From an uncultured Nitrospiraceae bacterium (GTDB lineage Bacteria > Nitrospirota > Thermodesulfovibrionia > Thermodesulfovibrionales > Dissulfurispiraceae): 64,000 nucleotides of DNA. Where the stretch lies: contig CAVSHF010000005.1 of NCBI GenBank assembly GCA_963727805.1, positions 928,001 to 992,000 on the forward strand, given 5' to 3'. Below the pieces are notes generated by a model that saw only the letters and a list, made by a program, of their open reading frames with translations, ran no database searches and was not told the DNA's origin. This document shows positions 43,702 to 60,278 of this stretch, piece by piece. Each line of letters begins with the position of its first letter. The first letter of the stretch is position 1. The translations under genes were made by a program, and so were the position numbers.

Positions 43702-45240
43702 ATGGCTAATAGGGGTATATCCATGCGGATGGTTAGAGAAATCTTAAGACTGTATTATGGGCTGCATCTTGGCAAACGACAAATAAGCCGGTCCTGCAAA
43801 GTGTCGCCGAGCACAGTAGTAGATTATGTCCAGAAGGCCCAGGATAAGGGCATTTCATGGCCACTTCCTGAGGACCTTGATGACGCAAAGCTTGAAGCTA
43901 TGCTCAGTGAACGCAGTAGTCGGAAGACAGCCCTTCGTCCGCTGCCCCCAATGGAGGAGATTCATCGCGAGCTTCGCAAAAAGGGCGTCACCCTTCAACT
44001 GTTGTGGCTCGAATATAAAGAACGGCATCCTGAGGGGTATCAGTTTACGCAGTTCTGCGAGCATTATCACCGCTGGGAGAAAAACCTTGAGATAAGTTTA
44101 CGGCAGGAGCATCGCGCCGGCGAGAAGATGTTCATCGACTTTGCCGGCAAAGGGATACCCATCGTCGACTCTTTCACAGGCGAGAGCACCGAAGCTCAGA
44201 TCTTTGTGGCAGTCCTTGGAGCAAGCAACTATACCTATGTCGAAGCGCTCCCATCGCAGAGTCTCCCCTTCTGGATCAAGGCTCACATCAATGCTTTTGA
44301 ATACTTTCACGGTGTGAGCCAAATCCTTGTCCCGGACAATATCCGAGCAGCCGTATCGAAGTCCTGCCGATACGAACCCGACCTCAACCCCGTATATCTG
44401 AGTCTGGCGCAGCACTACGGTACCGCCATTATCCCTGCACGTCCGTATAAACCAAAAGATAAGGCAAAGGTGGAAGCCGGAGTATTGCTGGTCACCCGAT
44501 GGATCATTGCGGCATTGAGGAATCACACATTCTTCAGTATCGAGGAGCTTAATGCCAGCATCAGGGAACTTCTGGAACGCTTGAATACCCGGAAGTTCAG
44601 GAAACTAAACAGTACCCGCAGAGAACTCTTTGAGACCCTTGAGAGGCCGTATCTTAAGCCTTTGCCCGTTGAGCGGTATCGATACATCGACTTCAAGCGG
44701 CCAACGGTTAACATCGATTACCACGTCGACGTAGCGGATCATTACTACAGCGTTCCTTACCAGCTTCGTGGCAAAAAGTTAGAAGCCTTCCTCACTGTCG
44801 ATACGGTGGAGATCTTCCACAATAACAATCGCATTGTGACTCATCAACGCAGCTTCAAAGCAAGAGGATATACGACCATTGCTGAGCACATGCCGAAAGC
44901 GCATCAGAAGCATCTTGAGTGGACTCCATCGAGGATCATCCACTGGGCGGAGCAGACCGGCGCTGCCACAGCAAAGCTTGTCGAGACCATCCTGACGACG
45001 CGACCGCATCCGGAGCAGGGATTCAAATCCTGCATAGGCCTGTTGAGACTCGGCAAGAAGTACTCGCCGGAGAGACTGGAAGCAGCCTCTATGCGGGCGG
45101 TCCATATCAAGGCTTATTCATACAAGAGCGTCAAGTCGATGCTTGAAACCGGATTCGACCGTACTCCGATCACCGAACAAAAGGAGGTGACCCCGCCCTT
45201 ATATCATGACAATATCCGCGGTAAAGAGTACTTCAGTTGA
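43702..45240 (+). CDS. istA: IS21 transposase
   Basis: HTH N-terminus; FIDFAG, LVPDN and PKDKAKVE DDE motifs; HDNIRG C-terminus. Confidence 0.95.
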   Translation: MANRGISMRMVREILRLYYGLHLGKRQISRSCKVSPSTVVDYVQKAQDKGISWPLPEDLDDAKLEAMLSERSSRKTALRPLPPMEEIHRELRKKGVTLQLLWLEYKERHPEGYQFTQFCEHYHRWEKNLEISLRQEHRAGEKMFIDFAGKGIPIVDSFTGESTEAQIFVAVLGASNYTYVEALPSQSLPFWIKAHINAFEYFHGVSQILVPDNIRAAVSKSCRYEPDLNPVYLSLAQHYGTAIIPARPYKPKDKAKVEAGVLLVTRWIIAALRNHTFFSIEELNASIRELLERLNTRKFRKLNSTRRELFETLERPYLKPLPVERYRYIDFKRPTVNIDYHVDVADHYYSVPYQLRGKKLEAFLTVDTVEIFHNNNRIVTHQRSFKARGYTTIAEHMPKAHQKHLEWTPSRIIHWAEQTGAATAKLVETILTTRPHPEQGFKSCIGLLRLGKKYSPERLEAASMRAVHIKAYSYKSVKSMLETGFDRTPITEQKEVTPPLYHDNIRGKEYFS

Positions 45241-45333
45241 AAATCGGCTCTATGGGACAGCCAATAATCGACTAAGAGGCATCGACCAAGGGGTAAGTAT
45301 ACCCCACAAACATACTATAAGGAGGAGACAGCG

Positions 45334-46083
45334 TTGAATCACACTATCGAAAAACTCTCACAGATGAAGCTCTACACAATGGCAACGGCAGTGAAGGAGC
45401 AGCTTGAAAATCCTTCCCTTAGCAAACTGAGCTTTGAGGACAGATTCTCCATGATCATAGACCGGGAGTGGACTTCCAGGGAAGACAGAAAACTCACCAG
45501 AAGACTCAAGTCGGCACGCCTGAGGACCAATGCCACTATCGAAGATATCGACTATCAGCACCCCAGGGGATTGGACAAGTCGGTCGTCAGATCCCTGGCT
45601 TCTTGTCAGTGGATCTCTTCTCACCATAACGTGATCATCACCGGGCCGACCGGCATCGGCAAGACTTACCTTGCTGAGGCATTTGCAAACAAAGCCTGCC
45701 GAGAAGGATTCACTGCTGTACAATACCGGTCAACAAGACTCTTTGAGGAACTGAGGATCGCAAAAGCTGACGGCAGTTTCTTCAAGGTCCTCGGAAGACT
45801 TGCAAAGACGGACCTCCTCGTCATTGACGACTGGGCCGTGGACCCACTGACCGAAGATGAGCGCGGCCACTTCCTGGAAGTCATGGAAGACAGATACGGA
45901 CTGAAGGCGACAATCATTACCAGCCAGTATCCCGTCGCCAAATGGCATGATCGCATCGGAGAGCCTACAAAAGCCGACGCCATACTCGACAGGATCGTCC
46001 ATAACTCACACAAGATAGCTTTGAAGGGAGAATCGATGAGAAAAACTAAGACAAACTTGACGAAAGGCGAACGCTCTTCGTAA
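45334..46083 (+). CDS. istB: IS21 helper ATPase
   Basis: GPTGIGKT, LLVIDDW and ADAILDRIVH motifs; TTG start after AGGAGG. Confidence 0.95.
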   Translation: MNHTIEKLSQMKLYTMATAVKEQLENPSLSKLSFEDRFSMIIDREWTSREDRKLTRRLKSARLRTNATIEDIDYQHPRGLDKSVVRSLASCQWISSHHNVIITGPTGIGKTYLAEAFANKACREGFTAVQYRSTRLFEELRIAKADGSFFKVLGRLAKTDLLVIDDWAVDPLTEDERGHFLEVMEDRYGLKATIITSQYPVAKWHDRIGEPTKADAILDRIVHNSHKIALKGESMRKTKTNLTKGERSS

Positions 46084-46678: not shown

Positions 46679-49315
46679 TTAAGACGTCTTGCCTGAGACT
46701 CCTTCCGGCTTGCTCATCAGCTCGTAATTACCGTTTTTGAACCTTTGGGCATAATGCGTGATGGTGGTATCATCGCGCAGCAGTGCATCAAGTTTCCTCG
46801 CAAAGGCGATGAGCCTTCCGAGCTGGTCGAGTACATCCTCCATCTGTTCCCGGCTGATATTGGCCAGCCTCGCGATGAGCAGATCTCCCTTCGTCCAGAT
46901 CGTGAAACCGTAATCCTTAAGAATTGAAGCGATGAACTGCACCCTCCGCGAGCGCTGAGATATATCGGTCGCCCCCCCGGAGAAACGAAAATAGATATGA
47001 TTGTTTCTGGGGTTCTCGCTACAATAACAGTCCACGATATTGAAGTGGTATCCGAACTTCAGGCTGAGATTTACATACTCTCTCGATACAACGGCCACAT
47101 TCATAAGAGGGGAACTCATGCTCTCCGAGTGGATATCGGGCATGCGTGTCATGCTCATAAAAAAGTCCTTCATCTTCAAGGGTACCGTCTCATTATGCCA
47201 TGCGCCCGGATGCATCATCCCCCCCACAATCGCCTTAAGTGGGATTGAAACAATTTCGTTTACCGTCACCGTTTCCCTTGAGCCCTTTGTCCCTTTGGAG
47301 ACACTTCTGTCTAGGCCACCGCCCATGTCAATTATCACAATGCCGGCTGGGACAGGCAGGTCCAGTGTTATGGCAGCGTAGTCTTTCAGACTTGCCCTCC
47401 TATGTCGGGTGCAGTCAACTAGTTCCATGATCGATTTTTCATGAATGAACCTGAGGATGTCATGCATGGTCTTGCATTGCTCAGGCAGGAAATTACTATG
47501 CAAGGGTTCGATTAGATTAAGGGGTGAAATATGCGTCAACACATACCTTTTCTTCAGGTATTCATGTCCCTCGGTTATATCCGGCACATTTGCAGAAGAG
47601 CAATCGCGCACTTCATCAACGATTCCCTCGTATACGGCGCTGCCCTCGTCGTCCACGATTACCGTTACCTTCATTCCGTCTTTAAGTATTCGCGTGGCGT
47701 CATCCGTGTTCACGATAGTCGGTATCCTGCACTCCCTAGAGAGTGAAGCCATATGACTGGTAGGGGTACCGATGTCGGTGATTATAGCTGATACGTCATT
47801 CATCAGGCGTACGAAAACCGAGAAGTCGCGCTTTGAGACGAGGATTGCGCCTTTAGGAAAATCTCCGGCATCGTCCGGTGTCATTGCCACAAAGACCTTT
47901 CCTGCGCCGATGCCCTTTTGGACGCTGATACCTTTATTCCGCATCAATGTCGGCCTTGATTCAAAATGCCTCACGACGGACGAGCAATTACTGCCTTCAC
48001 CTTCTCCCATCCGCAGTTCCCTTGCCTGCAATATAAAAATCCTTTCATCTCGGTCAAGCGCCCATTCGATATCCTGAGGCCTCCTGCAATGCTTCTCGAT
48101 TAACTGGGCCTGAAGTGCGATTTCAGTCACAAGCCTCGGATCAACTACCATTTTGTCCCTCATCTCACGAGGAGTCGCAATCGTGTCGATTCCACCCCCT
48201 GGTATGAACACAGTCATCGATTCCTTCATGCCGCATCTCATGTCAGTTATTTGAGGAGATGCACCCCTGTTGACTCTGTAGATATCCGCTTCAACCAACC
48301 CTTCGACGATGGTCTTGCCGAGGCCCCAGTTAGCGCTGATCAAAAGGGTGTCCTTGTTGCCGATCGGTCCGCTCGGGTCCACGGAATACACAACCCCGCT
48401 CGATACCGCCTCCACCATCGCCACGCACCCGACTGACATTTTCATCTTACTGGCATCATAGCCAAATCGCTTCTGGTACGCCATGGAATGCAGCGAGAAG
48501 AGGCTCGCGACTACCTTTTTATAAGCCTCCTTTATGGCCAAGGCTTCCAGTGGAACATTCAGCAGGGTGTCGAATTGTCCGGCGAATGAAAGCTTGCCGT
48601 CTTCTTCCTCAGCGCTGCTTCTTACCGCGATGGAGCAAGATGCCCCGCATTTTATCTTCATCCTCCTGATTGCAGCATCGAACTCTCTATCCAGTGCCGG
48701 AGGTATTTTACCAATGATAATCGCAGTGCGCAGCGCAACAAAGTCCTCTTCGGATATCTCACCTTTTTCCATTAGAGACTCAACCTTGTCATTGAGTCCA
48801 TTGAATTGCAGAAATTCGTCGAACGAGCGTGTAGTGATAAAAAAGGCATCTGGGACATTGAGGTCGAGCACATTTTTTAGCTCGGCGAGTCCGGCATTTT
48901 TGCCCCCTACATCATAGTACATATCCCATGATGTATCTTCGATGAAAACAACCCTTTCACCGGATGTAGAGGCCGAGTCCGACAACATCTCCACGATCCT
49001 GCCGTCTATTCTGATGAAGGCATCGCGCAGCCCCGGATATCCGTTGCGTGTGAGCATGTCGAAGTTTTTTATTGAACTCGAGACGTCAGCGGAAAGCTCC
49101 GCGTATGCGCTCTCGATATAATTGATATCGAACAGATATTCGCCGCTGAGTTTCTCTCCCATCTCGGCGATCATCTCAATAGCTCTGTTGTGGCTTGTGA
49201 GGACCTGCCGGAACCTGCTGAACAGGACTTGAAATGGCAGTGGTGGATGGAGCGACCTCTTCATTTTCCTGCTGATGCTGCTCAATAAACCTGCAAGACT
49301 ATGATTCATTATCAC
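46679..49315 (-). CDS. PEP synthase/PPDK-like dikinase (ATP-grasp + phospho-His domain + atypical C-terminus)
   Basis: VGGKNAGL, AVRSSAEEED..SFAGQF, SANWGLG and PQDIEWA..ILQAR; GTPTSHMASLSRECRIP His motif. No recognisable PEP-binding barrel. Confidence 0.85.
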   Translation of the reverse strand: MIMNHSLAGLLSSISRKMKRSLHPPLPFQVLFSRFRQVLTSHNRAIEMIAEMGEKLSGEYLFDINYIESAYAELSADVSSSIKNFDMLTRNGYPGLRDAFIRIDGRIVEMLSDSASTSGERVVFIEDTSWDMYYDVGGKNAGLAELKNVLDLNVPDAFFITTRSFDEFLQFNGLNDKVESLMEKGEISEEDFVALRTAIIIGKIPPALDREFDAAIRRMKIKCGASCSIAVRSSAEEEDGKLSFAGQFDTLLNVPLEALAIKEAYKKVVASLFSLHSMAYQKRFGYDASKMKMSVGCVAMVEAVSSGVVYSVDPSGPIGNKDTLLISANWGLGKTIVEGLVEADIYRVNRGASPQITDMRCGMKESMTVFIPGGGIDTIATPREMRDKMVVDPRLVTEIALQAQLIEKHCRRPQDIEWALDRDERIFILQARELRMGEGEGSNCSSVVRHFESRPTLMRNKGISVQKGIGAGKVFVAMTPDDAGDFPKGAILVSKRDFSVFVRLMNDVSAIITDIGTPTSHMASLSRECRIPTIVNTDDATRILKDGMKVTVIVDDEGSAVYEGIVDEVRDCSSANVPDITEGHEYLKKRYVLTHISPLNLIEPLHSNFLPEQCKTMHDILRFIHEKSIMELVDCTRHRRASLKDYAAITLDLPVPAGIVIIDMGGGLDRSVSKGTKGSRETVTVNEIVSIPLKAIVGGMMHPGAWHNETVPLKMKDFFMSMTRMPDIHSESMSSPLMNVAVVSREYVNLSLKFGYHFNIVDCYCSENPRNNHIYFRFSGGATDISQRSRRVQFIASILKDYGFTIWTKGDLLIARLANISREQMEDVLDQLGRLIAFARKLDALLRDDTTITHYAQRFKNGNYELMSKPEGVSGKTS

Positions 49316-49679
49316 TCTTCTCTAGTGCACGCAGTATGGACGCCTTTAAATCCTTGATCCTGACCGGCTTCGGGAAAAAGTCGAAAACGTCTCCCCTCAA
49401 GGCCTCGATGGCTGTATCCAGATTGGCAAAAGCTGTAATCATTATGACCTTAGTCGTAGGGTTTAGTTCCTTTACAGTTCTGAGAACCTCCATTCCATCT
49501 ATGCCTTTCATCTTGAAATCGGTAATGACCACATCAAAAGGTTTTTCCTTGAGCCTGGCCAGTGCTGATTCGCCATTGAGGAATGTCTCCACGTAATATC
49601 CGTCATGCTCCAGTGACATTTTTGCCATGTCCCCAACTATCTTTTCGTCATCGATGACCATGATGTTATATTGACTCAT
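49299..49679 (-). CDS. Single-domain response regulator (REC)
   Basis: IMVIDDE, VVITDFKM, MITAF and FFPKP motifs. Confidence 0.9.
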   Translation of the reverse strand: MSQYNIMVIDDEKIVGDMAKMSLEHDGYYVETFLNGESALARLKEKPFDVVITDFKMKGIDGMEVLRTVKELNPTTKVIMITAFANLDTAIEALRGDVFDFFPKPVRIKDLKASILRALEKSDNES

Positions 49680-51081
49680 GTCTTGCCTCCTTTGCACGTT
49701 TGTAAGATGGTAACTCTATTGTAAAGGTGGTGCCGAGGCTTACCGTGCTGTCAACCTTTATATTCCCATTGTGGTTCATTATGATCCCGTAACTGACAGA
49801 CAGACCGAGACCAGTACCGCTGCTCTTGGTGCTGAAGAAGGGGTCAAAAATATTAGGCAGATATTCCGGAGGGATTCCCTGGCCCGTATCCTGAACACGT
49901 ATCATAACTGTATCTTCTCCCACGGCTTTAGTCTCAACCGTCAGAGTACCACTCGGAGACATAGCCTGCACCGCATTTGCAATAAGGTTTACCATTACCT
50001 GTTCTATCTGATGCTCATCGATGTAAACATGTGGCAGACCTTGTCCGAAAATCAGCTTCGACTCGATATTAGATATGTCCAGAGTATTCTGCATGAGCCG
50101 TACCGATTTCCTCACTATCTCATTGATGTCCGCTTTTTTTAACCTCGCCTCCCTAGATTTCGAAAAATCAAGAAGGTTTTTGACGACATCCTCCATCCTC
50201 TTTGTTTCCTCATAGGCTTTGCTGATCAAAGATAGTCTGCTCTCTTTATTGAGAAAATCATAAAGATCCAGATAATTCTGGGTTATCATCGAGATGTTAT
50301 TAAGGGGATTGGTCAATTCGTGGGCAACCCCCGCTGTCAGAACGCCAAGGGATGCAAGCTTCTTAGCCTGGATTATCTCCTCTCCCTTATTCTTCAGCTC
50401 TTCGGACATACGATTTATTGCAAGTATTACCGACCCAAATTCATCTTTGGATCTCCCGTCCTCAATTTTGCTGAAATTTCCTTCTGCTATGGACATTGCC
50501 ACTCTTTCAATAGCCCTGAGGGATATTGATATCTTCTTTGATACGAGCCTTCCCAAGACTATGGATAGAAACAGTATACACAGGAAAGAGATGAACAGGA
50601 GCCTTTTGGCATTGAAAATGATGTCGTTGACGCGCTTCCTCTCAAGTTGAGTTTTAGCCTTAAAAAAATCTCTTAACTTCCTGCCCACCGTGCTCAATTC
50701 TGATTTGAGCCTCGGATCTTTCCCATGGGTCCTGTCAAGTTCATCGATGACTTTTGAATATTCGTCCAGATACGACCTCAACAACTGAAGATTGTTGTCC
50801 CCTATGACGCGAATCAGATCTTCTTTGGTCGCATCGATGGATTTCATCGAGTCCCCTATGTTTTCATGAATGTTGATAAGCCATTTCTCGTCGTTGTAAA
50901 GCAGAAAGTTCTTTTCCGAAATCCTCATTTCGAGGAAGGATGCGTTCAGGTCATCCGATATCTCCACAAACCTGAGCTTTGCCAAGACTTGGTTCATATT
51001 TTGAAAGGCAAAAAGGCCTATCATGATAATAAAAGCTACATTAAAGAAAAAAGAAAGCTGTATTTTATGTTCTATTTTCAT
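49666..51081 (-). CDS. Membrane sensor histidine kinase (2 TM, HAMP, HisKA, HATPase)
   Basis: AGVAHELTNPL, NLIANAVQAM, DTGQGI, FDPFFSTK and GTGLGL motifs. Confidence 0.93.
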   Translation of the reverse strand: MKIEHKIQLSFFFNVAFIIMIGLFAFQNMNQVLAKLRFVEISDDLNASFLEMRISEKNFLLYNDEKWLINIHENIGDSMKSIDATKEDLIRVIGDNNLQLLRSYLDEYSKVIDELDRTHGKDPRLKSELSTVGRKLRDFFKAKTQLERKRVNDIIFNAKRLLFISFLCILFLSIVLGRLVSKKISISLRAIERVAMSIAEGNFSKIEDGRSKDEFGSVILAINRMSEELKNKGEEIIQAKKLASLGVLTAGVAHELTNPLNNISMITQNYLDLYDFLNKESRLSLISKAYEETKRMEDVVKNLLDFSKSREARLKKADINEIVRKSVRLMQNTLDISNIESKLIFGQGLPHVYIDEHQIEQVMVNLIANAVQAMSPSGTLTVETKAVGEDTVMIRVQDTGQGIPPEYLPNIFDPFFSTKSSGTGLGLSVSYGIIMNHNGNIKVDSTVSLGTTFTIELPSYKRAKEARHESI

Positions 51082-51090
51082 ACATTCCTT

Positions 51091-52299
51091 TTAATGCGGC
51101 ACGGGGCATCTGGGCATCTCAGACTGTTCCTTCCGCACAGGAAGATACCACAATATGCCGTCGACAATCATCAATAATCCGGCCGTTATCAGCATTGCAT
51201 CGACTATGATCAGCGAGCTGACAGCAAAGTAACTCACGAACACAATTCCCATACTCGAAAAGGAGACGCCCGTTCTTGCCAATGCAAGACCGGTTCTCGC
51301 CCTAGCATATATAGACCGGTAGCATGCAGCAACAGTCCGTTGCCCCGCAAGGACATTTCTTTCCCGTGCTAGCTGGGTCCGCACCTTGCTTGCCGGTTTG
51401 GGATAAAGGATTGTGCAATGGTCCGCCAGGAAATCCCCAAGGCGCGCGAGCATCGTCCCCTTTGTTACAACATTTATGCCACTATCCTCTATAAAGTGAT
51501 AATTCTCCAAAAAGGATAAAGTCGCGGATGTGACCTCAACAAGGGTCTGATGCTCGTGAGGCTTTATCCACGATTTCCTGATCCTTATATAACCGAATAG
51601 GCCCAAAGCCCCGACAAGAAGGCCCACCACAAGCATGGCCCAATACAGATAAAGATGATCTCCCAGCTTAAATGTGTGCAAGAGTATATCCGCCACCGCT
51701 ATGGTTCCAAGTCCCCACCTGAGAACGGCCAGACTTGTCCTTCCCTTTGATAAGTCATTCCTGTAGCAGGCAAGCCTCGTTCTCCAATGGGCCATGGTAT
51801 TTCGCCATAGAGCAAGGCCGGTCCTCTCTGTCCCGGCAAGACGCCCGGGTTTGGCGTGAAGAAAGTCCTTTATAAACCAGCGGATGTCCTCCCGAAGTGC
51901 AAACCACAACTCATATTCGTTCACCCCGAAAAATCTCCTCGCTTCATTTACAATCATAGGATCTTCCGGATTGTTAGCTGCTATTATAATCTTATTGCCT
52001 TCGCTCGCAACGGGAAACCAGTAACTCATAAAAAGCCTGTCGTCATCGACTCCATCGAGCAGTTCCCGGGGTATGGGCAATCTTTCATCGTATTCGATAT
52101 GCGGACAATGATAATAATCCGAACAGGCCTGCAGGAGTGCATGCCTGGTTACTCCATATTCCCTTATGAGCACCGTCTCAATATCGACAGACCTGGCCTC
52201 AGCTGAGTTTATCGCCTCGAATATTTTGTCCTTGCCCAGGATGCCGTTATCGGACAGAAGGAGGAATCTTTCGGCCTCTGTTTTAATCATTGTTATCAT
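51091..52299 (-). CDS. T2SSE_N/MshEN-like domain + 2 DUF202-like membrane repeats
   Basis: N-terminal GspE-N-like domain (YYHCPHIEYD...YWFPV...AANNP); repeats RTGLALWRNTMAHWRTRLACYR... and RTQLARERNVLAGQR...RTG. Confidence 0.75.
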   Translation of the reverse strand: MITMIKTEAERFLLLSDNGILGKDKIFEAINSAEARSVDIETVLIREYGVTRHALLQACSDYYHCPHIEYDERLPIPRELLDGVDDDRLFMSYWFPVASEGNKIIIAANNPEDPMIVNEARRFFGVNEYELWFALREDIRWFIKDFLHAKPGRLAGTERTGLALWRNTMAHWRTRLACYRNDLSKGRTSLAVLRWGLGTIAVADILLHTFKLGDHLYLYWAMLVVGLLVGALGLFGYIRIRKSWIKPHEHQTLVEVTSATLSFLENYHFIEDSGINVVTKGTMLARLGDFLADHCTILYPKPASKVRTQLARERNVLAGQRTVAACYRSIYARARTGLALARTGVSFSSMGIVFVSYFAVSSLIIVDAMLITAGLLMIVDGILWYLPVRKEQSEMPRCPVPH

Positions 52300-53929
52300 C
52301 GCTGAATATCACTTTTTCCCACATATAGACAGGTTTTCCGTAATCAGGAATTGGAATTTCCATCTCGCCAAGGCAATATGGGAATTGTCTCCGTGCTTTC
52401 TCGGCAGGGGCATACCAGTAGAGCCCATCGGCGATGAGAAACAATCCCACAACGATCAACAGGCAGTACAAGACAGTCCATGCTATGACATCCGGACCGT
52501 AATAAGCCAGCAGCGCTATTCCGACAGCTGCCAAACTCATTCCAGTCCTGATAATTGCAAGCCCGGTCCGTGACCTCGCCATCATGGTACGCAGTCTTGC
52601 CATAACATTTCGCCTGTCCGCCAACATCGTCCTTTCTAGGGCGAGGCCGGTTGTCGCCCAAATGCCCCGTATATGCGATTGCCTGACAGGCGGCACGTGG
52701 GCGTGCAGGTCCCTAAAATAAGTTCTTTTGTGTACTGGCGGAAAAACTATATCCCAAATATTGATCTTCTCCTCAGCTTCTTTGACTGAGTCGACACACA
52801 CGATGCCCGCGCGCCGGCCGGGCAAGTACCAGTAAAAACCTTCCAATGCCATCATGATCCCTGTCACGATGAGGCCTGCATCGAAAAGGGTCCATCCACC
52901 CGTGGGGAATTGCCTGAGCAGCACTATGCCAAGTCCGGCAAATGCAACACCGGTACGCGTAAAGGCGAGTCCGTTGCGGCCCCTCGCCATTAATGTCCTG
53001 TGGCAGGCAAGTGTCGTCCTTTCCTCTGCCAGATCCGTCCTGTCGCTGGCCAGGAATCGCCGACGCATTACCGGCGTCAGATTGCTCCAGTCTGCTCGCA
53101 ATTCATCAGCGCCCGCCGCAGGTCTGGTTCGGAAAAAACATGGATCATTGCCAGGATTCGACACTTCAAGCACAGTCGAATTTCCCGTTGGATGTGTCGA
53201 TACGCACTCAGGCATCTTCTTGCCAGTCCTCCTAGCTGGTAAATACCACAAAAATCCGTCGACGGCCATCACCATGCCGGCGACAAGGAGTGCTGCCTCA
53301 AGGACTGTCGAATATCCAATCCCAAATATCCTGAAGAGAACTATCGAAATTGTAATAAAAGAGATCCCGGTTCTCATGAAAGCGAGGCCTGTCCTTCCTT
53401 TGGCTAGGGAAGTCCTGTAACATGCCAGCACCGACCGTCTTTCCGAGAGAAATGTCCGCACTAACGCGAGAGGCGTTCTAGCGGCGGCAACGCCGAAACT
53501 AGGATTCAAATCCAGGTTGTTCTCGATGAGCCTGATAATGTCTGAGGGAAGCGCTACCAGCAAGTTGATTCTCTTTACATTCAGCGTCTTCTTTATTTCC
53601 CCGATAGTAGACATGTCGGGATTGTACGCAATAACTTCTGCTTGGTCATTGTCGAAATAGAGGGGTATCCAAAGGGCGCCTTTCAGTCTCTCCAGTTCCA
53701 GCATTCGCACTATCTTTGAAGAGACCATTATATCCTCATCGTATTCCACGAAAGGATATCCGTAATATTCGGTCAGACAGAACAGTATTTCATGTTTGGG
53801 GATGCCCCTTGACAGTAAAAGATCTTCAGGGTATTTACCTGCAGCCGAGGATTCGTCTGTTATGTGTAGCAGGTCTTCCTCGGTGATGAATCCCTGCCTG
53901 ATCAGTCTTGAAAACTTTTTGTCAAACAT
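52283..53929 (-). CDS. T2SSE_N/MshEN-like domain + 3 DUF202-like membrane repeats
   Basis: N-terminal domain paralogous to the downstream gene; three LAxxRTxLA..RTG repeats, each ending (D/E)GxxWYxP. Confidence 0.75.
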   Translation of the reverse strand: MFDKKFSRLIRQGFITEEDLLHITDESSAAGKYPEDLLLSRGIPKHEILFCLTEYYGYPFVEYDEDIMVSSKIVRMLELERLKGALWIPLYFDNDQAEVIAYNPDMSTIGEIKKTLNVKRINLLVALPSDIIRLIENNLDLNPSFGVAAARTPLALVRTFLSERRSVLACYRTSLAKGRTGLAFMRTGISFITISIVLFRIFGIGYSTVLEAALLVAGMVMAVDGFLWYLPARRTGKKMPECVSTHPTGNSTVLEVSNPGNDPCFFRTRPAAGADELRADWSNLTPVMRRRFLASDRTDLAEERTTLACHRTLMARGRNGLAFTRTGVAFAGLGIVLLRQFPTGGWTLFDAGLIVTGIMMALEGFYWYLPGRRAGIVCVDSVKEAEEKINIWDIVFPPVHKRTYFRDLHAHVPPVRQSHIRGIWATTGLALERTMLADRRNVMARLRTMMARSRTGLAIIRTGMSLAAVGIALLAYYGPDVIAWTVLYCLLIVVGLFLIADGLYWYAPAEKARRQFPYCLGEMEIPIPDYGKPVYMWEKVIFSDDNND

Positions 53930-54352: not shown

Positions 54353-54760
54353 ATGTATAATGCAGCTATGACTGCGGATAAGATCAACACAGACCACAAG
54401 AAGCCTAAAAGAACACATGTTTATCGTATCATCGTTCTCATCTCGGCATCTCTTACAAAGCTGATCAGCACATTGATCATCTGCCAGAATTCTCTCAAGG
54501 CGGCCGAAGAAGCGCTTAAGCTTCAGGCCTTAGGAATCGCCGCCAGCTTTGAACCTTCCCTAGTAGATGTGAAGGGGAAAGAAAATATCTTCAGGGATAT
54601 CATCAGAGAGGCATCATGGGAAGGTATCGCCTTCACTGCTCTTTATGACCGGCACGGGGTACCCCCTCTTCATTCATATAAAAATCTTGTCGGCCGCAAA
54701 GAGAGCAATTCATTACAGGGCACGCGAAAAACCCCATCTGTTGGTATGCTCAAGGTATAG
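54353..54760 (+). pseudogene. Probable truncated N-terminus of a membrane sensor kinase
   Basis: TM segment followed by a periplasmic-sensor-like region (EGIAFTALYDRHG); no kinase core follows. Confidence 0.35.
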
Positions 54761-55060
54761 CCTGCGATCTAAACCGCGGAGGGACAGGTGGAGTAGCAAA
54801 ATAGGCATGAATTTCCGGGCAAAAGATTCAATGTCTGGCAGCAGGAACTTTCCGCAATAGCATTTCCTCTTCTGACGAAGAATTAAACACTTCTAAGACC
54901 GAGTATAATCATGACGATTAGATCTCTGAGAGCAGCGCAAACTATCAACAGAGCGTCACTGCGTTATTTTCTCCATGGCAATTTTTCACTGCATGTTGTT
55001 TTTTATTTCTGTTTTGATACCATATGGATATAGACATAGATTTCGTTAAAAGGAGATAAC

Positions 55061-55552
55061 ATGAGAAAGATATTGGCAATATTATTTTCAGTTTGTACTT
55101 GTGTATTTTTTATTACGTTCACAGCGTCATCCGAAGAAAAAACGACAGCACAGGCAATGAAACCGTGCGACGGCTGGACTCTCCACATTGATGCAAAAAA
55201 ACACATTCCTAAGATGCCTGATATGATCGTTCACCATTACTGCAAACAAGTATCAGGTGGGCTTACTGAATGTCAACTCTATGATAGCGACAAGCCGGAT
55301 GCTCGGCTTGTAGGAGTTGAGGTTGTTGTCGATAAAGAAACTTGGAAGAAATTCTCAAAGGAAGAGAAGTCACTCTGGCATTATCACAAGACTGAGCTTC
55401 TGAAAGTAGAGCCTACGCTTCCTGACGTTTCTGCTGAAGAAGGGACAAAGACGTTGAAAAGTATGGAAGAGACTTACGGCAAGGTTTTTATCTTTTGGAA
55501 TCCGGCCAAAAGTGATCCGACCGGAAGGCCTGTGGTATCGATCTTGCGATAG
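55061..55552 (+). CDS. DUF1264/OBAP-family exported protein
   Basis: VHHYC...ECQLYDSDKPDARLVGVE...LWHYHK...TYGK; signal peptide. Confidence 0.8.
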   Translation: MRKILAILFSVCTCVFFITFTASSEEKTTAQAMKPCDGWTLHIDAKKHIPKMPDMIVHHYCKQVSGGLTECQLYDSDKPDARLVGVEVVVDKETWKKFSKEEKSLWHYHKTELLKVEPTLPDVSAEEGTKTLKSMEETYGKVFIFWNPAKSDPTGRPVVSILR

Positions 55553-55944
55553 CGGTAGGTTCAAGATAGCAGCATGACCTTCGGAAATTTATAAGTACTG
55601 CTAGGTATTAGGTGTTATTATGCCAATGTGCATATAGGCAGGAAGGTGACGATACCGAAAAGCCCCGAGGTTCTACTCAGGGAAACAAGGAACCTCGCGT
55701 AGAAAAACTTCATGCTCTCTTCCTTCCCGAAGCACACTATCATTTTTTTGCCACAAGTGTCACTTTTCCCGGGTATGCAACAGACATCGTCATTTGAAAT
55801 ATTGCCACCTCGTGTAATAGCGAACAGCGTTATAAGATCAGAAGTTGAGGCAAATGTTTCCTCGCCGAGTCCTTGAAGCCGAAGGTCGCCTGGGGTTGTT
55901 CATCACGCATTCGAAGCCTTAATATAAAGAAGTTTCTATGCACA

Positions 55945-56560
55945 TTATGCAGGAAAGAGTCGTGAACATTCACTACACTTGTATATCAAGACCTTCCCCC
56001 ATCTTTTTGAGGAGCGTCGACGGGGTAATAGTTTAAGAAGAAATTTAATTCTAGGCTTGAGCAGGCCTTTTTTACTGATGATGTCCTCTGGATAAACGCT
56101 AATATAAATTGCTTTAGCACGGAGGCCTACTCGACTAATCTCATCAGCCGCTTTTCCTGTTTTTGTTCGGCATAATACCATCAAGGATTATCAACTCCAC
56201 GCGAGCACTATTCTCTCTATATTTTGCGCCTGCATCTTCTCCGTCGACTGCTTCGATCATGCTGTACCCATAATGTTCCAGTAAGGTAGACCCCAGCTTC
56301 CGCAGCGCTATATCACCCTCTGCCATGAATATAGTTTCAGAACCGCACTTGTTCTGGGCGACTGCCGTTTCGCTCTGCTCCCCCCTGAGGTCTCCCCTAT
56401 AGAGGGGGAGATATATCTTAAATATCAAGCCAGGCCCAGTTCGCCACACATGTCAATATATCCGCTGTCCTGCTTTATAATGCCCTATATCGAAAGACCA
56501 AGCCCCGTTCCCCTTCCCTGCTCCTTTGATCGTAAAAAATGGGTCGAATATTCTCCCACT
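55945..56560 (-). pseudogene. Hybrid histidine kinase C-terminal remnant (HATPase + REC), fragmented
   Basis: GKGTGLGLS...GIIKQ, FKIYLP, GSETIFMAE...EAVDGEDA...LIILDGIMP spread over several frames. Confidence 0.7.
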
Positions 56561-57666: not shown

Positions 57667-58008
57667 AAATACAATCCCGCTCTTGCGTAGCTGAGTATTC
57701 ACAACACCCTCAGTCATCTAACTAATGGGCCTTTGATGTCAAATGTAAATATCGCTGATACGCTTTTATCAATAGATGACAAACTCGCCAAGTTCACACA
57801 AAAGTCGGAAGCACCAAAATAACGAGTGATATTATGTGGAAATAATGGCAAACAATGACTTTGATTCATAGCTTGGTTTTGATAACCTAAAATTGACCAG
57901 CAAAGCGGGGTTTTGATAACCGAAAATTGATCATCCCAAGCATATCTCCTCATGATGAAGTGGGGCATAGTTTCCAAGTTGCCCCATTTTTATGCTGAGG
58001 AGGAAGGA

Positions 58009-59508
58009 GTGCTCAAGATGGATCAGTATGAATTGGTCAGGACGGGTCATCGGGTGTACGGACAGAACATCAGTGAGTTATCAAGATTAACGGGCCATTC
58101 TCGGAACACGATCAAAAAAGCCATACGCGGAGAGCCGTGGGGGTACAAGGAAAGGAGCCATCAGCCGTTTCCTGCCCTTGGCGATTACATGGTGGCTATC
58201 GATAACTGGCTTAAGAGCGACAAAGACAAACCGAAGAAGCAGCGGCATACGGCGCACCGGATATACAATAGGTTAGTGGATGAGCGTGACTATAAAGGAG
58301 GAGAGTCCACTGTTCGCCGCTATGTGAGACTTGCCAGGGTGATTTTGGGGATCGAAACACCGCGCGTCTTTATCCCATGCAATCCAGAGGCAGGGCAGGA
58401 AGCGGAAGTTGACTGGGGCACTGCGACGGCGATCATTGCAGGGGAAGAACTCCGGCTGAAGTTTTTCTGCATGCGCAGTAAGTATTCCGGCAAACACTTC
58501 GTACGTTTCTATCTTTGTGAGAGACAACAGGCATTCCTGGATGCGCATATCCACGCGTTTTCCTTCTATGACGGTATATTCCCGGTCCTAATCTACGACA
58601 ATCTAACGACAGCGGTACAGAAGGTGTTGCGAGGGCGCGATCGCATCGAGCAGTCCGGATTCAGCAAGTTCAAGGCCTACTACAGCTTTGAAGCCCGGTT
58701 TTGCAATCCCGACAGCGGTAATGAGAAAGGCGGCGTTGAAGGACTGGTCGGTTATGCACGACGCAATTACATGGTCCCTATACCGGAGGCAGCTAGCCTG
58801 GAAGAGCTGAACGAGGAGATTCTTCGGCAGTGCGTCGCTTACGGCGATCACAAGATGGCTGGACGCGACCTCACCGTGAACGAATTATACGAAGAGGAGA
58901 AAGGGCATCTTCTTGCCCTTCCCGAAGCTGTATTCAGCAATGTGCAGACATCAGTGGGCCGGGCCGACAAGTATGCCACGGTCATCGTGGATAAGAACCG
59001 ATATTCGGTACCAAGCCGTTATGCTGGGTTCAGAGTGAAGGTGCTGCTCCGTGCTGATCGGGTGGAGATCTTTACAGGCACGAAGAAACTGACAACGCAT
59101 GAGCGTTTGTACGGCAACAACAAATGGGCTCTGAAGGCTGACCATTATCTTGAACTTATCCAACAGAGGCCGTTGGCATTCAATAGTGCACGGCCAATCC
59201 AGCAATGGAGGAAGAGCTGGCCGCAGTTCCTGCACCTTCTTTTGGAGCGTTTTTGCCGTTCCCAGGGTGAAACAAAAGGAATCAAGGACTTCATCACCGT
59301 TCTTATGTTCTATCGTGATTATGAGGCCGGCGAGATTGAAGCGGCAGTGGAACTGGCCATAGAGAACAACATCAGCACCAGCGACGGCGTGCATCATGTG
59401 CTCGCTTACACGGGTGACACCGTCAGCCCCATACCCCCATTGGCCTGCTGGCCGACGCTGCCACCTCCGGATTTGGCTGTCTATGCGCAGTTTGGAGGTG
59501 TTCAATGA
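58009..59508 (+). CDS. istA: IS21 transposase
   Basis: PKKQRHTAHRIY, AEVDWG, LIYDN and GNEKGGVE motifs. Confidence 0.95.
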   Translation: MLKMDQYELVRTGHRVYGQNISELSRLTGHSRNTIKKAIRGEPWGYKERSHQPFPALGDYMVAIDNWLKSDKDKPKKQRHTAHRIYNRLVDERDYKGGESTVRRYVRLARVILGIETPRVFIPCNPEAGQEAEVDWGTATAIIAGEELRLKFFCMRSKYSGKHFVRFYLCERQQAFLDAHIHAFSFYDGIFPVLIYDNLTTAVQKVLRGRDRIEQSGFSKFKAYYSFEARFCNPDSGNEKGGVEGLVGYARRNYMVPIPEAASLEELNEEILRQCVAYGDHKMAGRDLTVNELYEEEKGHLLALPEAVFSNVQTSVGRADKYATVIVDKNRYSVPSRYAGFRVKVLLRADRVEIFTGTKKLTTHERLYGNNKWALKADHYLELIQQRPLAFNSARPIQQWRKSWPQFLHLLLERFCRSQGETKGIKDFITVLMFYRDYEAGEIEAAVELAIENNISTSDGVHHVLAYTGDTVSPIPPLACWPTLPPPDLAVYAQFGGVQ

Positions 59509-60278
59509 AAGCCGGAGAGTCGATGGAACTGCAGGCAAATCTCAGGGCGCTGAATCTATCAGCCATGGCTCGCGACATTGAGGGGTTCGTGCGTCAAGCC
59601 CGGGAAGCCGGGATCGGCTATGACGAGTTTCTCCTCAATCTGACCGTAGCAGAACTGCAAGCCAGATCGGAAAGCAGGTTGAACCGCCGCGTCAGGGAGG
59701 CAAAGTTCCCCATTATCAAGCCACTGGAGACCTTCGATCTTGCAGCAGTACCGGAACTGGACCTTCGGCTGTTCCGGGAACTTACCGCAGAAGGCTATAT
59801 AAAGGAGTGCCGGAATGTCATCTTTCTTGGAAGAAGTGGCACTGGCAAGACGCATATGTCCACTGCCCTGGGGATCGAAGCCTGTAAAAACAACTTTCGG
59901 ACCCGGTTTGTCACCTGTTACGGCCTGGTCAACGAACTGATCGAAGCAAGACAGCAGCGGACGCTACAGCGTCTTATCCAAAGGTATGTTCGCTACGATC
60001 TGCTCATTCTGGACGAACTGGGGTATATACCTTTCTCCAAGGAAGGAGCGGAACTACTGTTTCAGGTTTTGGCGGAAAGGCACGAGAAAGGGTCAGTGAT
60101 GATCACAACCAATCTTGGGTTTGCCGACTGGACCCAAGTATTTGGCGATCCGGTAATGACCGCCGCGCTGCTGGATCGGCTGACCCATAAAGCCCATATC
60201 ATTAACTGCACCTGGGACAGCTATCGTCTGAAGCAGAGCCTTAAGGAAAAAAGAAAACATGGAGGCAAGGAGAAATAA
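59505..60278 (+). CDS. istB: IS21 helper ATPase
   Basis: GRSGTGKT, LILDELGY and AALLDRLTH motifs. Confidence 0.95.
   Translation: MKAGESMELQANLRALNLSAMARDIEGFVRQAREAGIGYDEFLLNLTVAELQARSESRLNRRVREAKFPIIKPLETFDLAAVPELDLRLFRELTAEGYIKECRNVIFLGRSGTGKTHMSTALGIEACKNNFRTRFVTCYGLVNELIEARQQRTLQRLIQRYVRYDLLILDELGYIPFSKEGAELLFQVLAERHEKGSVMITTNLGFADWTQVFGDPVMTAALLDRLTHKAHIINCTWDSYRLKQSLKEKRKHGGKEK

Follow-up and report, generated by a model that had tools for sequence, protein, structure and literature searches.

In a 64,000-nt stretch of DNA from an uncultured Nitrospiraceae bacterium (assembly GCA_963727805.1, contig CAVSHF010000005.1, positions 928,001 to 992,000; hereafter the window), two overlapping genes encode related membrane proteins, A and B, that carry three and two copies, respectively, of one unit: a long helix with Arg at every seventh residue (the Arg ladder) running into a membrane hairpin. 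We propose, tentatively and at somewhat under even chances, that A and B join 1:1 into a pseudo-pentameric anion conduit built of Arg rings, under phosphorelay control, gated by a receiver protein and serving small oxyanions rather than polyphosphate. The parts of this proposal can be graded separately. A five-helix barrel with its Arg residues turned inward is probable; such a barrel, once granted, would likely conduct anions; and there is a good chance that a conducting barrel would take a small oxyanion as cargo, with sulfur oxyanions the most likely candidates and phosphate a possible one. The first-pass annotation of the window had likewise suggested a five-helix conduit, with polyphosphate or another polyanion as its cargo. 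The pair comprises the following features, where TM denotes a transmembrane helix.

52283..53929, minus strand: gene A, 548 aa; MshEN-fold N-domain and three repeats, each an Arg ladder with a two-TM hairpin
53510..53929, minus strand: N-terminal MshEN/GSPII-fold domain of A, residues 1-140 (Pfam PF05157, E 8.6e-7)
53234..53488, minus strand: repeat A1, residues 148-232; ladder R151-R186, TM1, R200 of the putative outer ring, TM2
52817..53071, minus strand: repeat A2, residues 287-371; ladder R290-R325, TM1, R339, TM2
52400..52651, minus strand: repeat A3, residues 427-510; ladder R433-R461 (five Arg), TM1, TM2
51091..52299, minus strand: gene B, 402 aa (399 from Met4); MshEN-like N-domain and two repeats
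51856..52299, minus strand: N-terminal MshEN-like domain of B, residues 1-148 (PF05157, E 9.2e-9)
51577..51834, minus strand: repeat B1, residues 156-241; ladder R159-R194, the most diverged of the five repeats
51133..51390, minus strand: repeat B2, residues 304-389; ladder R307-R342

Arginine Heptads and Repeat Architecture

The heptads reported by the first-pass annotation hold throughout: all 29 positions named, 17 in A and 12 in B, are Arg, in unbroken chains of 6, 6, and 5 in A and of 6 and 6 in B. Among 20,000 composition shuffles per protein, a chain of at least six Arg was seen once for A and once for B, and a chain of at least five 26 times for A and 17 times for B. The ladders are also conserved, with 14 of the 17 Arg invariant among 146 A homologues (the other three kept in 143-145) and 9 of the 12 invariant among 127 B homologues (the other three in 123-126). 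The overlap of the two genes, also noted before, spans 17 nt, shrinking to 8 nt should Met4 be the start of B, and the proteins are 31% identical over 381 columns of a pairwise alignment. The repeat ending (D/E)GxxWYxP, noted before for most repeats, is missing from B1, which ends in GLFGY. The first 167 codons of gene A recur elsewhere in the same genome (G000:C5:4351-4850) as a second copy that is truncated and frameshifted, at 65-68% identity.

Each repeat contains two hydrophobic helices and the linkers contain none (linker hydropathy ≤0.79). An AlphaFold2 model of A alone (pLDDT 83, pTM 0.77) has unbroken helices at residues 151-202, 286-340, and 427-477, with another long helix after each; every ladder of A is predicted to form, together with its TM1, one continuous helix of 51-55 residues. 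From the last Arg of one repeat to the first Arg of the next, the spacing is 97-114 residues, and because it is so tight, the stalk would be limited to about six heptads, or roughly 60 Å. In a fold search, the helical part of the whole-chain A model matched generic helical bundles (Z up to 10.9) and no VTC chain was among the matches listed, a result that is little informative for a multi-repeat query set against single three-helix chains.

Both proteins start with a domain of ~140 aa, of the MshEN/T2SSE_N type, that was missing from the first-pass annotation. The modeled N-domain of A superposes on the N-domains of MshE, XpsE, and PilF (Z 12-13.5), including MshE 5htl with a Z of 13.5 and an rmsd of 3.5 over 137 residues. 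The receptor motif by which MshEN recognizes cyclic di-GMP (c-di-GMP) is given as RLGxx(LVI)(LVI)xxG(LVI)(LVI)xxxxLxxxLxxQ (PMC5013675). It occurs in 0 of 146 A and 0 of 127 B homologues, even when relaxed to a loose [RK][LI]GxxL pattern, and on its absence from these 273 proteins a c-di-GMP receptor reading of A and B was rejected.

Repeat Number and Pairing Across Genomes

The 3+2 count is constant: three repeats were found in 120 of 120 listed A matches and two in 120 of 120 listed B matches, out of 917 and 969 matches, respectively. The pairing of the genes is equally regular. Of the 79 A loci used (from the best 80 of 234 genome-contig stretches), 76 have B immediately downstream and three break off where the contig ends; each of the 80 B loci (the best 80 of 169) has an A-type gene upstream of it. 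Across the phylum, 60 of 401 genomes carry a match at E < 1e-70; 58 of these carriers have a B match next door, and two are cut by contig ends. When 151 genomes of the class were scanned with a single-repeat profile, 20 had matches. Exactly five were counted in twelve of these, ten in one, and five strong ones plus a single weak one in two; of the remainder, one genome had three matches, at the end of a contig, and four had a lone weak match. Short open reading frames (ORFs) read in two genomes proved to be plain DUF202 proteins.

In a tree of 71 repeats (10 per position and 21 single hairpins, over only 88 columns), the repeats of every one of the five positions group in a clade of their own, with a support of 99-100. 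The paired A/B alignment holds 104 unique pairs, with an effective number of 63 for 950 columns. No natural five-repeat fusion was scored among proteins of 705-2010 aa, which is weak evidence. Two apparent fusions of B to the kinase were dismissed as probable products of frameshifts or faulty assembly: at L056 the last hairpin is garbled, and at L175 the locus is full of frameshifts. A second three-repeat paralogue, A', is inserted between A and B at loci L018, L032, L036, and L049 and in genomes G322 and G386, and is probably an alternative subunit. Named A/B loci fall mostly in Nitrospirota, with some in Thermodesulfobacteriota and Myxococcota. A had no match in the plasmids searched, the ESM Atlas gave DUF202-family clusters only and no structure for them, and no RNA holder was among the matches listed.

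Kinship With DUF202 Proteins and VTC

The first-pass annotation took the ladders for the LAxERT signature of DUF202, the family of YidH and Vtc1. The kinship stands, while the wording of the signature does not. Three stretches of A match DUF202 above the Pfam gathering cut-off (PF02656; E 3.5e-14, 53.4 bits), and B falls short of the cut-off (E 0.014, 16.3 bits vs 23.4); PF02656 is nevertheless present in many B homologues of the protein search listing, and B is tied to the family through A because of their 31% identity. The ANERT motif of DUF202 aligns not to the LAxERT words farther upstream but to the fifth Arg of the ladder, where the A/B repeats read KGRT, RGRN, RSRT, or RART and the Glu is lost.

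DUF202 has been given as a domain of Vtc4 (PMC4400040). VTC, the polyphosphate polymerase/translocase of yeast, is described as a 3:1:1 pentamer of three-TM units with a pore lined by five TM1 helices, in which Vtc1 K24 and R31 form basic rings, M42 serves as the gate, and an ionic lock joins E30 to R83 between subunits (PMC9911596; bioRxiv 2023.01.27.525886). Via YidH, and thus over weak bridging alignments, K24 corresponds to the fourth Arg of the ladder, R31 to the fifth, and N38 to the sixth. The E30-equivalent site is mostly Gly, Ala, or Ser and never Glu among the listed residues of all five repeats, and neither hydropathy nor the A model indicates a VTC-type third TM in the A/B repeats; with E30 replaced and TM3 lacking, the ionic lock has no counterpart in A/B. 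Judged by its sequence, the pair is a relative of VTC and not a member of it.

YidH itself was found in an Escherichia coli screen for D-alanine export and had no effect in the transport assay (PMC10299036). The present genome has a plain YidH-type DUF202 gene (L004 1390-1830, minus strand; G000:C5 ~571 kb) between TauE/USP and YeeE (Sulf_transp) genes, accompanied by a divergent kinase and a sigma-54 regulator.

Heptad Register and Predicted Lumen Face

The heptads follow one register: a is Ala or Ser (91%), d is Arg, e is Thr, Asn, or Ser, g is Leu or Met, and b, c, and f are variable. The four conserved positions (g-d-a-e) form one contiguous arc with Arg and Ala at its center. Conservation at g-a-d-e with free b, c, and f is typical of Type II barrels of five to seven helices (PMC9523718). 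From this register we infer the orientation of the Arg residues in A/B, which would lie on a lumen-type face, as the conduit idea of the first-pass annotation requires. In 665 heptads taken from single-hairpin relatives, almost every charged residue besides the ladder Arg falls on b, c, or f, and acidic residues are absent from a, e, and g (d being Arg by construction).

The lumen-type face continues through the membrane, with Ser, Ala, or Gly at the M42 level, then Thr, Gly, Ala, or Ser, and then mostly small residues. At the outer end, Arg recurs in three of the five repeats (R200 in 135/146, R339 in 141/146, and B208 in 103/127 homologues) and in 59 of 61 single hairpins; in the other two repeats, the site is often His, Arg, or Lys (B356) or hydrophobic (A475). 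The conserved face favours a polar lumen that would run right through the assembly.

The Single-Hairpin Sister Family

Proteins with a single hairpin and a longer ladder form a sister family. They came up among the 150 listed of 1169 matches in a profile search, and a genome scan gave 65 loci. At 61 of the 65, the motif lies in an ORF of at least 170 aa with 2 to 25 consecutive Arg heptads. These relatives lack the N-terminal MshEN domain, and all nine that were tested pass the DUF202 cut-off. In 24 of the 61, a receiver domain is fused to the C-terminus; a gene for a phosphoenolpyruvate (PEP)-synthase-like enzyme follows within 400 nt downstream in 22 of these fusions, the other two lying at contig ends. 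This enzyme shows homology throughout its length to the PEP-synthase-like protein of the window (29% over 854 columns, E 1e-120). In the tree, the fused proteins branch as the sister of A1, A2, A3, and B2 (support 95/89).

The simplest reading of these sequences is that the sister family would be a homo-oligomer and A+B its tandem, length-fixed version. Unpaired homologues with freely varying numbers, which the first-pass annotation had named as a sign against its proposal, do occur, but in the sister family only, where it is the ladder length that varies; since each such protein has one hairpin, the lack of a partner still fits a homo-oligomer. The fused form was seen at loci L223-L247 on Desulfobacterales/Desulfobulbales contigs, with the match at ~6001 followed by a PEP-synthase-like gene of ~855 aa. 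The unfused form, with 7-25 Arg heptads (L187-L222, L248), comes from Thermodesulfobacteriota, Myxococcota, Acidobacteriota, and one Thermoplasmata bin, and one of its carriers, Desulforhopalus vacuolatus (L218), is in culture; a cytidylate-kinase-like gene is present in 10 of 37 non-fused loci, and a redox cluster, divergent or on the opposite strand, borders two of the unfused loci (L208, L212). No single-hairpin relative was found in the viral contigs searched.

Operon and Genomic Surroundings

In the window, the A/B pair heads a run of genes that overlap or nearly abut, continuing with a kinase, a receiver, and a PEP-synthase-like gene. The counts below refer to the 54 A/B loci with enough flank, in 43 of which all three genes lie downstream of the pair.

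49666..51081, minus strand: HAMP histidine kinase, 9 nt past the B stop; downstream of the pair in 45/54 loci
49299..49697, minus strand: receiver-only protein, likely ATG at 49679, overlapping the kinase stop; 48/54 loci
46679..49315, minus strand: PEP-synthase-like protein with PPDK_N, a His mobile domain (TSH motif kept), and a C-terminal domain; 44/54 loci

The periplasmic sensor of the kinase is 4HB/HBM-like. The PEP-synthase-like protein ends in ~290 aa (window 46679-47560) that have no Pfam or PDB sequence match and are conserved in a distant homologue. On the upstream side, TauE and Alph_Pro_TM genes are present in 37 and a USP gene in 36 of 62 A/B loci. The equivalent of this usual neighbour is, in the present genome, a block of kinase, sigma-54 regulator, TauE, Alph_Pro_TM, and USP genes at G000:C3:1888082-1894796. 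A second PEP-synthase-like paralogue, of 859 aa, belongs to a TauE/USP/kinase/receiver/CBS cluster (L253 5808-13530; G000:C5 ~612-619 kb). At L066, L069, and L254, Tad-like pilus genes and an AAA ATPase precede the pair, or a cut A, in place of the TauE block.

Farther out, on either side of the operon, lie IS21-family elements (istA/istB) that differ from each other (window 43702-46083 and 57952-60278). Short ORFs at window 54353-56449, one with a weak receiver match, appear to be remnants of signalling genes, and a DUF1264 gene lies at 55061-55552. Promoter-like sites occurred at chance level (18 vs 13.7 ± 4.6), and a sigma-54 pattern gave 3 matches against 3.7 expected, none of them near the operon.

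Cargo

Polyphosphate, the cargo first suggested, finds little support in the genomes. Among the 60 carriers, PPK1 is present in three, and PPK2 and the VTC catalytic domain (PF09359) in none above cut-off, with controls detected; the present genome, which is 100% complete, has dsrA and none of the three. As the carriers are mostly without known polyphosphate-making enzymes, such a cargo is disfavoured, and the TM3 and E30-R83 lock of VTC are absent as well. A comparison with 20 non-carrier relatives (thirteen further non-carrier genomes were left out) found PPK1, PPK2, and the VTC domain in none of them, so the lack of polyphosphate synthases is a trait of the lineage. Co-occurrence with dsrA was considered as a link to the pair and rejected as lineage background, at 54 of 60 carriers against 19 of 20 non-carriers.

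A sulfur context comes from Dissulfuribacter thermophilus, for which adjacent TauE, TM-partner, and PEP-synthase proteins are reported to rise by 1.56, 1.79, and 3.40 log2 during thiosulfate disproportionation (PMC13490349). This response supports a role of the module in sulfur-oxyanion handling but does not point to A/B in particular. Three Desulfobacterota-type loci (L075, L078, L081) lie near a phosphate-ABC-like cluster.

Proposed Mechanism and Alternatives

In the proposed conduit, A and B would assemble 1:1 in the inner membrane as an Arg-lined helix barrel, the five long helices packing around an axis as in VTC and the TM2 helices forming an outer ring. Rings of Ala (a) and Arg (d) would alternate along a cytoplasmic stalk of ~60 Å, small or polar rings would line the membrane part as far as a basic ring at the outer mouth, and the fixed linkers would run back along the stalk, capping its length. 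The membrane potential, inside-negative, would drive anions outward, and an open pore would therefore need a gate. The receiver protein is the likely switch, because in the sister family it is fused to the hairpin, and the c-di-GMP-blind MshEN domains may well be docking sites.

Several observations weigh against this conduit. The Arg orientation is a prediction from the register, and the Type II heptad pattern fits pentamers to heptamers alike. The bridge to VTC is thin: a repeat profile searched against PDB sequences gave two chance matches and no VTC chain, the YidH of this genome matched Vtc1-type VTC chains only, and weakly (E 0.12-0.18), and the YidH bridge alignment has an hhalign probability of 53%. 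The A and B locus sets overlap and were gathered with A/B-derived patterns, so their counts are not independent, and an A+A'+B arrangement exists at 4 of 79 A loci and in two further genomes. As to genomic context, the TauE block of this genome lies on another contig, apart from the pair; TauE/PPDK clusters without a ladder gene exist, including the second cluster of this genome; the PEP-synthase-like enzyme is lacking in 10 of 54 A/B loci; and dsrA fails to discriminate carriers from non-carriers. Lastly, with up to 25 heptads (~260 Å), ladders in the sister family exceed the length that a pore for small ions requires.

The same five-helix barrel could instead be a non-conducting anion-binding sensor or scaffold, its Arg rings filled by bound phosphate, pyrophosphate, or sulfite and its stalk relaying the bound state to receiver, kinase, or dikinase. 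We regard this as unlikely. The receiver fusions of the sister family (24 of 61, of which 22 precede a dikinase-like gene), the joint presence of kinase, receiver, and dikinase at 43 of 54 A/B loci, the variation in ladder length from 2 to 25 heptads, and the MshEN-fold docking domains would all suit such a sensor. However, the membrane part keeps its small or polar lumen sites and outer Arg ring, features that would be superfluous in a sensor working in the cytoplasm alone, and the VTC homologue conducts.

A more doubtful alternative follows the logic of VTC: in an enzyme-coupled polyanion translocase, the PEP-synthase-like protein would replace the catalytic domain of Vtc4 and feed a polymer or phosphorylated product into the tube, be it polyphosphate made by a new route or another polyanion. 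In one version, held to be just as doubtful, a receiver-switched PEP-synthase-like enzyme of the ATP-grasp/phospho-His type would make the polyanion and thread it through an Arg-ring tube of 60 to 260 Å, which in sulfur-cycle bacteria would exist both as a single-hairpin homopentamer and as a 3+2 heterodimer. One enzyme family does adjoin two different ladder architectures, and it keeps its ATP-grasp and His domains beside the unmatched C-terminal domain; very long ladders would suit a polymer, and the carriers, apart from the three with PPK1, lack the known polyphosphate synthases. Against this, the enzyme is not nearby in 10 of 54 A/B loci and 29 of 37 non-fused single-hairpin loci, and its paralogues occur in TauE clusters without a ladder gene. 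To our knowledge, no polymerase chemistry is known for the PEP-synthase-like fold.

It is also improbable that 3+2=5 is a coincidence and that the proteins adopt another stoichiometry, such as homo-oligomers, A2B2, or a 3+3 hexamer. Type II heptads would allow five to seven helices and A+A'+B loci exist, yet no survey yielded an unpaired full-length A or B away from contig ends, the five repeats form distinct clades, and the solved homologue is a pentamer. An ordinary polyphosphate channel, fed by a PPK or a VTC-domain enzyme, is very unlikely: its DUF202 homology, five units, and K24/R31 equivalents, along with the phosphate-ABC-like cluster near L075, L078, and L081, are set against the scarcity of these enzymes (PPK1 in 3/60 carriers, PPK2 and VTC domain in 0/60, none in this complete genome) and the absence of the TM3 and ionic lock that VTC needs. 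Least credible is an accessory of a type II secretion or pilus system, after the database names for B, which has the GSPII-fold N-domains and the Tad-like genes preceding the pair in L066, L069, and G085 on its side and was rejected on the neighbour test (Tad-like genes at only 2/79 loci); A and B also have no ATPase domain, and the single-hairpin relatives no N-domain at all.

Implications

The literature searched (titles and abstract beginnings, with most subscription papers outside the search) contained no account of the 3+2 pair family and no established function for bacterial DUF202 proteins, VTC being the only solved member. With two tractable forms, the 3+2 pair and the single-hairpin chain, two questions come within reach of direct tests: the cargo of bacterial VTC-type pores and the means by which sulfur oxyanions are moved in sulfate reducers and disproportionators. 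In addition, the widespread and unexplained TauE/USP/receiver/PEP-synthase-like module gains a candidate membrane output. A natural five-helix barrel with a core Arg in every heptad would, if true, be uncommon among coiled coils and could serve as a model for the design of anion pores.

Comparison With Known Systems

The closest structural parallel is the VTC ring (Vtc1 x3, Vtc3, Vtc4; PDB 7YTJ, 8I6V, 9UMG), whose DUF202-type TM1-TM2 unit is shared by the A/B repeats. VTC is an asymmetric hetero-assembly, as A/B is predicted to be, but it places its five units on five chains, whereas A/B reaches five by repeat count on two. The basic residues of VTC TM1, seven apart, make two rings; A/B would have five to six Arg rings and an outer one. 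VTC has three TMs per unit and a gate at the M42 level, whereas A/B has two TMs per unit, has lost the E30-R83 lock, and carries small residues at that level. The SPX and TTM catalytic domains of the VTC complex have no counterpart in A/B, which has MshEN-fold N-domains instead. The latter share their fold with the MshEN domains of MshE, PilF, and XpsE over ~137 residues in A; those domains are fused to an ATPase and have the RLGxx..Q c-di-GMP motif, whereas the A/B domains are fused to membrane hairpins and showed no such motif in the 273 homologues checked.

YidH and other stand-alone DUF202 proteins (PF02656) share the RT-x-LA-xx-RT-G/S hairpin core with the A/B repeats. They keep ANERT and consist of one unit without a ladder, in contrast to the five ladder repeats of A/B, in which ANERT is lost. 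Finally, designed and natural Type II α-helical barrels (CC-Pent and its relatives) have in common with A/B the conservation of g-a-d-e and the freedom of b, c, and f. Their lumen is hydrophobic, whereas the A/B barrel would be membrane-anchored and hetero-assembled, with Ala and Arg at the lumen positions.

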